A stretch of 64,000 nucleotides of DNA. It comes from Escherichia coli. Lineage in GTDB: Bacteria > Pseudomonadota > Gammaproteobacteria > Enterobacterales > Enterobacteriaceae. The notes beneath the pieces are model-generated. The model worked only from the letters and a program-made list of their open reading frames with translations, was not told the origin of the DNA and did no database searches. Positions 42,287-42,499 of the stretch are shown here, in pieces (positions within the stretch are counted from its first letter, which is position 1; every line of letters begins with the position of its first letter). A program made the translations under genes and the position numbers. The stretch lies in assembly GCF_013122565.1 (NCBI RefSeq), contig NZ_CP053258.1. One strand, written 5' to 3'.

Positions 42287-42338
42287 GAAATAAATGGGGT
42301 GGCTAAATGTCCCCTAAGGTTGCGGGCAAACGCAAAAC

Positions 42339-42438
42339 TGCCTGATGCGCTACGCTTATCAGGCCTACACCGCTCCTGCAATATATTGAATTCTTGCGGT
42401 TTCGTAGGCCGGATAAGGCGGTCACGCCGCATCCGGCA
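42339..42438. repeat. REP elements (BIME-like pair) in the ybaM-mscK intergenic region
   Basis: tgcctgatgcgctacgcttatcaggcctac and gtaggccggataaggcggtcacgccgcatccggca, canonical REP palindromes in opposite orientation. Confidence 0.65.
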
Positions 42439-42467
42439 TGAACAACGCGCACTTTGTTAGCAATCTC

Positions 42468-42499
42468 GGGGCAACTAAATGTCGCCCCCTTTTGTTTTT
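42468..42499 (+). terminator. Candidate rho-independent terminator (GGGGCAAC / GTCGCCCC stem plus T-tract) for the priC-ybaM transcript, overlapping the mscK 3' end
   Basis: Imperfect 8-bp stem followed by CTTTTGTTTTT, read from the sequence. Confidence 0.45.

Follow-up and report, generated by a model that had tools for sequence, protein, structure and literature searches.

The window, a 64,000-nt stretch of Escherichia coli DNA, contains a gap of 211 bp (42287-42497) that lies exactly between the stop codons of two convergent genes, rsmS (also named ybaM) and mscK (Table 1). When a 601-bp query around this gap was searched, E. coli chromosomes matched with identities of up to 98.8%, and their neighbouring genes are annotated as priC, rsmS and mscK; these annotated records bear out the convergent ybaM-mscK junction that had been proposed in a sequence-only reading of the same DNA. 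In addition, MscS-type domains were recognized by Pfam on a protein identical to the MscK encoded in the window. The genes priC and rsmS are known to form an operon, and the rsmS product is a small regulator tied to the Csr/Rsm system (PMC6418279). With regard to the origin of the DNA, the right flank of the gap (42439-42497), with its GTC in the stem and TTTTG in the tail, was identical in none of 5426 complete E. coli genomes (best match 96.6%), and the exact MscK protein of the window (42501-45860) was found on four contigs only; the source strain is from a rarely sampled lineage.

Table 1. Genes and sequence features at the rsmS-mscK junction, with positions counted from the first base of the window.
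Feature	Position	Strand	Basis
priC	41584-42111	+	ORF list
rsmS (ybaM) coding sequence, 53 aa, final gene in the priC-rsmS operon	42125-42286	+	ORF list; rsmS in E. coli records; ybaM in NC_000913.3
C-rich, G-poor mscK-strand RNA, C/G 2.0-2.4, candidate Rho loading site	42218-42337	-	composition scan
rsmS stop codon	42284-42286	+	
A-rich run GAAATAAAT, directly before the left hairpin copy	42287-42295		sequence; short/long allele alignment
Left, decayed hairpin copy GGGGTGGC-TAAAT-GTCCCC	42296-42314		repeat search, 79% identity
Left arm, imperfect inverted repeat of the right arm; locus-specific, outside the REP family	42315-42338		consensus fold pairing
Y-type REP (palindromic unit), TGCCTGATGCGCTACGCTTATCAGGCCTAC, ends in CTAC	42339-42368	-	sequence, repeat search, fold, motif count
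Long (L-type) linker, 35 nt, between both REPs	42369-42403		sequence; recurrence in E. coli genomes
IHF-consensus-like site ATTCAATATATTG	42379-42391	-	12/13 match to WATCAANNNNTTR
Z-type REP, GTAGGCCGGATAAGGCGGTCACGCCGCATCCGGCA, GTAG head at 42404-42407	42404-42438	+	sequence, repeat search, fold, motif count
Right arm, single-copy flank between BIME and terminator hairpin	42439-42467		genome search
Terminator hairpin GGGGCAAC-TAAAT-GTCGCCCC	42468-42488	+	folds; K-12 comparison
C, then T-run TTTTGTTTTT at 42490-42499	42489-42499	+	sequence; K-12 Term-seq ends converted
mscK coding sequence, 1120 aa	42498-45860	-	ORF list, annotation of matching records, Pfam
mscK stop codon (tta)	42498-42500	-	

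The middle of the gap is occupied by an element that is a member of the REP/BIME family. Two REP units of 30 and 35 nt, both imperfect palindromes, lie here outside the genes as one pair only, in opposite orientation and with their GTAG heads facing the linker, the head of the Y unit being the GTAG on the minus strand that reads as CTAC at 42365-42368. Both palindromes and their mutual inverted symmetry were recovered by a repeat search of the window, and both units fold on either strand into stable stems with internal loops; the short central part of the Y unit makes its type clear. The window contains four copies of the REP foot motif GTAGGCCKGATAAG, located in this gap and at 30973-31056, whereas 0.48 would be expected and none of 100 shuffles reached four; within an E. 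coli genome, the gap region has a median of 19 matching places. The palindromes, the GTAG feet, the motif excess over shuffles and the multi-copy matches thus confirm the REP/BIME identity claimed in the sequence-only reading, which had placed the two REPs at 42339-42368 and 42405-42438; the first unit has exactly these limits, and the second starts one base earlier, at 42404, with its GTAG. A sub-threshold match to the REP-derived naRNA4 was returned by Rfam at 42407-42443. The cluster is the second of its kind in the window, as had also been claimed, and the other one (30973-31056) consists of two REPs in opposite orientation with a short linker, directly after a plus-strand stop codon.

E. 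coli REPs have been described as imperfect palindromes of 30-40 nt with a conserved GTAG at the foot, and BIME-1 as a single REP/inverted-REP pair (y + z1) with a long conserved linker that often contains an IHF site (Ton-Hoang et al., PMC3333891). The element in the gap is most likely a BIME-1 (RIP/RIB when IHF-bound), with which it shares the single pair of oppositely oriented REPs, the heads facing a long linker with an IHF-like site, the extragenic position between convergent genes and the membership in a high-copy family. The differences are not essential ones: the Z unit may be z1 or z2, and the IHF site is a predicted one. The outer flanks are inverted repeats in the gap as well, but they are single-copy and thus lie outside the family. 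At a stringent cut-off, each E. coli genome has the 35-nt linker at 1-3 further places (median 2 places per genome). Matches to the IHF consensus are common in the window (47 versus 37 expected), so that such a match is weak evidence alone. IHF may bind the linker, and the REP hairpins may stabilize RNA against 3' exonucleases, both roles being suggested by published work on other REPs rather than on this locus. Elements of this family are found in about 30% of the gaps between convergent genes in E. coli (preprint 10.64898/2026.03.23.713779).

On the rsmS side of termination, the right arm of the gap leads into a hairpin and a T-run, which were found precisely where the sequence-only reading had placed a hairpin and T-tract after the REPs. 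Seven of the eight stem positions are paired and one forms an A.C mismatch, the stem amounting to -11.8 kcal/mol; folded in context, the hairpin reaches -13 kcal/mol (z = -3.2), and one of 200 shuffles folds as well. The corresponding K-12 hairpin has a perfect 8-bp stem (-16 kcal/mol, z = -4.3), and the window differs from it by a T to C change in the stem (GTC instead of GTT), which gives the A.C mismatch, and by a C to T change in the tail. With nine T in ten positions, the tail after the stem is the most T-rich among the alleles compared. Hairpin and T-run are present in all long alleles compared (see below), with energies of -7.2 to -18.8 kcal/mol and six to nine T in ten positions among Escherichia. 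At the left end of the gap, 172 bp away, lies a direct repeat of this hairpin, which has a U-rich tail on the mscK strand and folds no better than shuffled sequences on either strand (z = 0.1 and 0.3); the symmetry between the left and right arms is clearer in other Escherichia species. Terminator prediction, which had been proposed as a check along with the sequence-only reading, gave a divided answer, since a stricter scan of the window missed the right hairpin owing to its stem rule and the A.C mismatch, while a looser scan of the window, run on both strands, gave 13 sites, with this hairpin among them and several lying within genes. Because the window holds 13 such sites, the sequence pattern alone is suggestive, not decisive.

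Evidence of a different kind comes from RNA 3' ends, which were mapped by Term-seq in E. coli K-12 MG1655 (Adams et al., 2021; PMC7815308). In this table the 3' end is the 51st base of the printed sequence, as we checked on the SgrS row, and K-12 coordinates were converted by the relation window = 532396 - K-12 coordinate, which was derived from the ORF list and the NC_000913.3 annotation. The dominant 3' end on the ybaM strand falls on 489902 (-) for LB cultures of OD 2.0 and on 489903 (-) for M63 (PMC7815308, Supplementary file 1), with the printed sequence ...GGGGCAACTAAATGTTGCCCCCTTTC[G]TTTTTACCCT, also given as ...CTCGGGGCAACTAAATGTTGCCCCCTTTC[G]TTTTTACCCT. These positions correspond to 42493-42494 of the window, on the rsmS strand, inside the T-run and 5-6 nt past the hairpin. 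The sequence-only reading had claimed plus-strand termination signals at the mscK 3' end, with the T-tract running into the mscK stop codon. The first claim is supported by the K-12 end in the T-run after the hairpin; the second holds for the DNA, in which the last two T (42498-42499) lie within the stop codon, but not for the mapped K-12 RNA, which ends 4-5 nt before it (mscK ends at 489898 in K-12). Transcript 3' ends, on whose presence at this site that reading had been staked, were accordingly found in public K-12 data on the rsmS strand, not on the mscK strand. The curated lists contain no other K-12 3' end at 489800-490299 on either strand, and the end is absent from the curated LB OD 0.4 list (PMC7815308). 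In the supplements searched of TERMITe (PMC12207403), of Dar and Sorek 2018 (PMC6061677) and of SMRT-Cappable-seq (PMC6131387), no entry on ybaM or mscK was found. Read counts at the K-12 end were 336140 and 226826, comparable to those at the rpsT, dapD and can terminators on the same strand; the count floor of Supplementary file 1 is ~23469 on the minus strand versus ~850 on the plus strand, so that counts are to be compared within a strand. Taking the count of 336140 as an sRNA-like abundance was considered and dropped in view of the minus-strand floor near 23469.

The GC-rich stem-loop, the T-run that follows it immediately and the K-12 RNA 3' ends within this T-run are the features of an intrinsic terminator, from which the site differs by the internal A.C mismatch in the stem of the window, by its distance of ~200 nt from the stop codon of the gene it serves and by a T-run that ends inside the stop codon of the opposing gene. 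Together these data, with the ends taken from the K-12 orthologue, support the conclusion that priC-rsmS has an intrinsic terminator, made up of hairpin and T-run, which works in one direction and is not used by mscK. A 3' end at this position could also arise by processing, if transcripts read through into antisense mscK and were trimmed back to the hairpin by exonucleases. Term-seq records steady-state ends, which alone cannot separate termination from trimming to a stable hairpin; moreover, Rho-terminated RNAs are trimmed back according to the authors of the data (PMC7815308), and the K-12 end falls in CUUUCG, before the longest U stretch. Nevertheless, we consider processing unlikely, as the site has the full anatomy of an intrinsic terminator, with a GC-rich stem and eight to nine T in ten positions, the K-12 end is sharp, lying within 1 nt in two conditions, and no Rho termination region is listed near the site on the rsmS strand (PMC7815308; an absence from the list only).

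The mapped ends bear likewise on the part played by the BIME, which might itself be the main functional element, its REP hairpins terminating or stabilizing the transcripts of both genes. Both REPs fold stably on both strands, convergent gene pairs with a REP between them are expressed at higher levels, and REP325 was reported to be a partly Rho-dependent terminator as well as a stabilizer (preprint 10.64898/2026.03.23.713779). However, no curated K-12 3' end falls at either REP on either strand, and the dominant end on the rsmS strand lies ~55 nt past the BIME, which indicates that rsmS transcripts cross it. In addition, a quarter of the E. coli genomes are without a BIME at this locus. A leading role of the BIME in termination or stability is therefore improbable. 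The comparison with REP325, located in the yjdMN operon, is nonetheless instructive: in both cases REPs lie in a 3' UTR and Rho-dependent termination occurs downstream on one strand, but REP325 is a 12-hairpin BIME-2-type array between tandem genes, whereas the present gap separates convergent genes and has a single pair of REPs, at neither of which a transcript end was mapped in K-12.

For the opposite strand, the K-12 data place a region of Rho termination, antisense within ybaM, at 490200 (+) (Rho score 3.18, p = 1.1e-5; PMC7815308, Supplementary file 2), and termination in this region on the mscK strand was sensitive to bicyclomycin, i.e., dependent on Rho (PMC7815308). The call denotes a region obtained from 800-nt windows, not a point, and its coordinate corresponds to ~42196 of the window, ~300 nt further along the mscK strand. 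The C-rich, G-poor stretch of mscK-strand RNA (read from 42337 to 42218) is situated downstream of the BIME and just upstream of this equivalent position. The curated K-12 Term-seq list contains no mscK-strand 3' end in the gap (PMC7815308), from which a minor end could be missing as mscK is weakly expressed. These observations support a reliance of mscK on Rho for its termination, the Rho region being a coarse one and taken from K-12.

We also weighed the idea that the right hairpin is a two-way terminator common to both convergent genes. It lies exactly at the junction and folds on both strands, with the minus strand even more stable than the plus strand (-15.7 versus -13 kcal/mol), and the short allele of this locus, present in 25% of E. 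coli genomes, looks like a shared terminator. On the minus strand, however, GAGAUUGC follows the hairpin in place of a U-run, and on the plus strand the hairpin lacks a preceding A-run; furthermore, K-12 has no mscK-strand 3' end in the gap, and its Rho-dependent region lies 300 nt downstream. A shared use of the hairpin is, for these reasons, quite unlikely. Bidirectional intrinsic terminators, as presented in papers citing Ju et al. 2019, resemble the locus in their position at convergent junctions, and the short allele has their symmetry of A-run, hairpin and T-run. In the long allele, A-run and T-run are instead placed on two hairpin copies 172 bp apart, and a 3' end was mapped on the rsmS strand only, mscK making use of Rho. 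When the long-allele locus was tested against this class, neither the sequence symmetry nor a K-12 3' end on the second strand was found, and we do not count it as a bidirectional terminator.

That the mapped 3' end belongs to a separate small RNA from the rsmS 3' UTR, either a processed BIME fragment or the product of its own promoter, is very unlikely: the read counts are high and REP-derived small RNAs (naRNA4) have been described, but these counts resemble those of the rpsT, dapD and can terminators and belong to a strand with a much higher scale in that table, a scan found no promoter-like site in the gap, no Rfam family reaches threshold there, and no paper in the library searched connects ybaM with an sRNA or with Hfq in this sense.

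Taken together, the gap is best read as a composite 3' region that combines a BIME-1-type element with an intrinsic terminator for rsmS and a Rho stop for mscK, a reading to which we assign a probability of about 0.82. According to this proposal, transcripts of priC-rsmS would read through the BIME-1-type element in mid-gap, composed of the Y REP, the long linker with its IHF-like site and the oppositely oriented Z REP, and would stop at the Rho-independent terminator (42468-42488 plus 42490-42499). The result would be a structured rsmS 3' UTR of ~208 nt, with 4-5 nt left between its end and the mscK stop codon, and the terminator would keep RNA polymerase out of antisense mscK. The mscK RNA would carry the same hairpin right after its stop codon and, because no U-run follows on the minus strand, transcripts would be expected to continue past the hairpin and through the BIME, to cross the C-rich stretch and to be stopped by Rho inside antisense rsmS. 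Since the sequence anatomy is that of the window, while the 3' end and the Rho region were mapped in the K-12 orthologue, we infer by transfer that termination in this strain proceeds as in K-12, with a hairpin that has one mismatch and a T-run that is better. The 3' UTR of the plus strand is predicted to form a single large structure by pairing between its two halves, left with right (-89.5 kcal/mol, z = -6.0), and this structure is kept in a consensus fold of nine Escherichia alleles. Among the 62 pairs of the long-range fold, none showed compensatory changes in these nine alleles, and the fold could therefore simply reflect palindromic DNA.

A comparison of complete E. coli genomes revealed that the locus occurs in two main forms. 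The long allele, detected by its 59-nt right flank exactly once per genome, is present in 4058 of 5426 genomes (~75%), and the short allele in 1365 of 5426 (~25%), including O157:H7 and ST131, so that the two alleles together account for 5423 of the 5426 genomes. In the short allele the gap is only 38 bp long, and its single hairpin, a strong one (~-21 kcal/mol on either strand when folded in context), is flanked by an A-run and a T-run; judged from the sequence, this is the shape of a two-way terminator. In the long allele the hairpin is present twice as a direct repeat, 172 bp apart, and the left copy keeps the A-run while the right copy keeps the T-run. The A-run at 42287-42295 matches that upstream of the single hairpin of the short allele, and in a gap-tolerant alignment the two halves of the short allele fall at opposite ends of the long gap, left on left and right on right. 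The length of RsmS also varies with the allele: the protein has 53 aa in the E. coli long allele, where a 1-nt insertion brings an earlier stop (window 42268-42286), and 55 aa in other Escherichia species (loci L005-L010, ~1340-1368), and the short allele encodes an RsmS of 54 aa whose tail differs.

Moreover, a single GGGGCGGC...GCCGCCCC hairpin was found beside the mscK stop codon in Raoultella, an Enterobacter and a Citrobacter. A long-type allele was present in each of the five other Escherichia lineages sampled; it contains a BIME in four (E. albertii, E. whittamii and two further Escherichia species) and a different repeat in the fifth, strain E69. The long form may thus be the older one within the genus, in which case the short form seen in E. 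coli may be an import or a retained allele. The different repeat lies between the same flanks in E69 and in one sequencing run with an MscK identical to that of the window; it is a GC-rich palindromic sequence of ~130 bp with GGGTGAGGG / CCCTCTCCCC motifs (loci L007, ~1360-1600, and L090, 4064-4307), and its family is represented at a median of 15 places per E. coli genome. This alternative cargo may resemble box C. At the rsmS-mscK junction itself, the allele with this cargo was found in none of the 5426 complete E. coli genomes. These comparisons suggest that repeat cargo may have duplicated or split an older hairpin that served both genes, and that the gap may have undergone remodelling repeatedly. 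We also considered a mobile element whose ends are inverted, with the TAAAT of the loop as a 5-bp target duplication; a duplication of the whole hairpin would fit better, because E. whittamii and E69 carry two complete hairpin copies.

A more far-reaching reading of this history would be that repeat cargo, a BIME here and the other repeat family in E69 and one further strain, came to lie inside an ancient two-way terminator, the halves of which are now 172 bp apart, that this split left an intrinsic stop for rsmS and a Rho stop for mscK, and that a 3' UTR structure of ~190 nt can still be closed by pairing of the outer arms; we regard it as possible but doubtful. If it were true, the ~75%/25% distribution of long and short alleles would constitute a natural experiment on the effect of REP insertion on the expression of two convergent genes.

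Independently of this history, what had been noticed in the gap is confirmed and ordinary: it contains nothing outside known kinds, and the transcript end is already present in a public 3'-end table. As REP/BIME elements between convergent genes are common, the locus matters little beyond good annotation, and its allele history is a tidy detail rather than a surprise. It has, however, modest value as a clean example of transcripts, those of rsmS, that run through a BIME to a separate terminator further downstream, of two convergent genes with different modes of termination, intrinsic for rsmS and Rho-dependent for mscK, and of natural alleles with and without a repeat within one species. Differences in the rsmS 3' UTR between strains could possibly affect the level of RsmS.

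Further variation was seen at the same junction. In some E. coli genomes the rsmS-mscK gap contains the transposase gene of IS621, an IS110-family element (loci L086, 1-81, and L089, 727-2292), which indicates that the BIME here serves as an insertion-sequence target; a tnpA gene of the IS200/IS605 type is also present in one IS621-carrying genome. An additional ORF on the plus strand, which begins with MERLPTTPHDAVFRQ, separates rsmS from mscK in Salmonella enterica subsp. arizonae and in several Citrobacter species, where the junction is not convergent (L011, L012, L013, L015, L016 and L017, from ~1460). In several Enterobacter, RsmS and MscK end in proline-rich tails, e.g., PHPNPLP or SPEGRG (L040, L041, L044, L047, L057, L063, L071 and L073), and each of the convergent frames seems to extend into the same GC-rich repeat from its own side.
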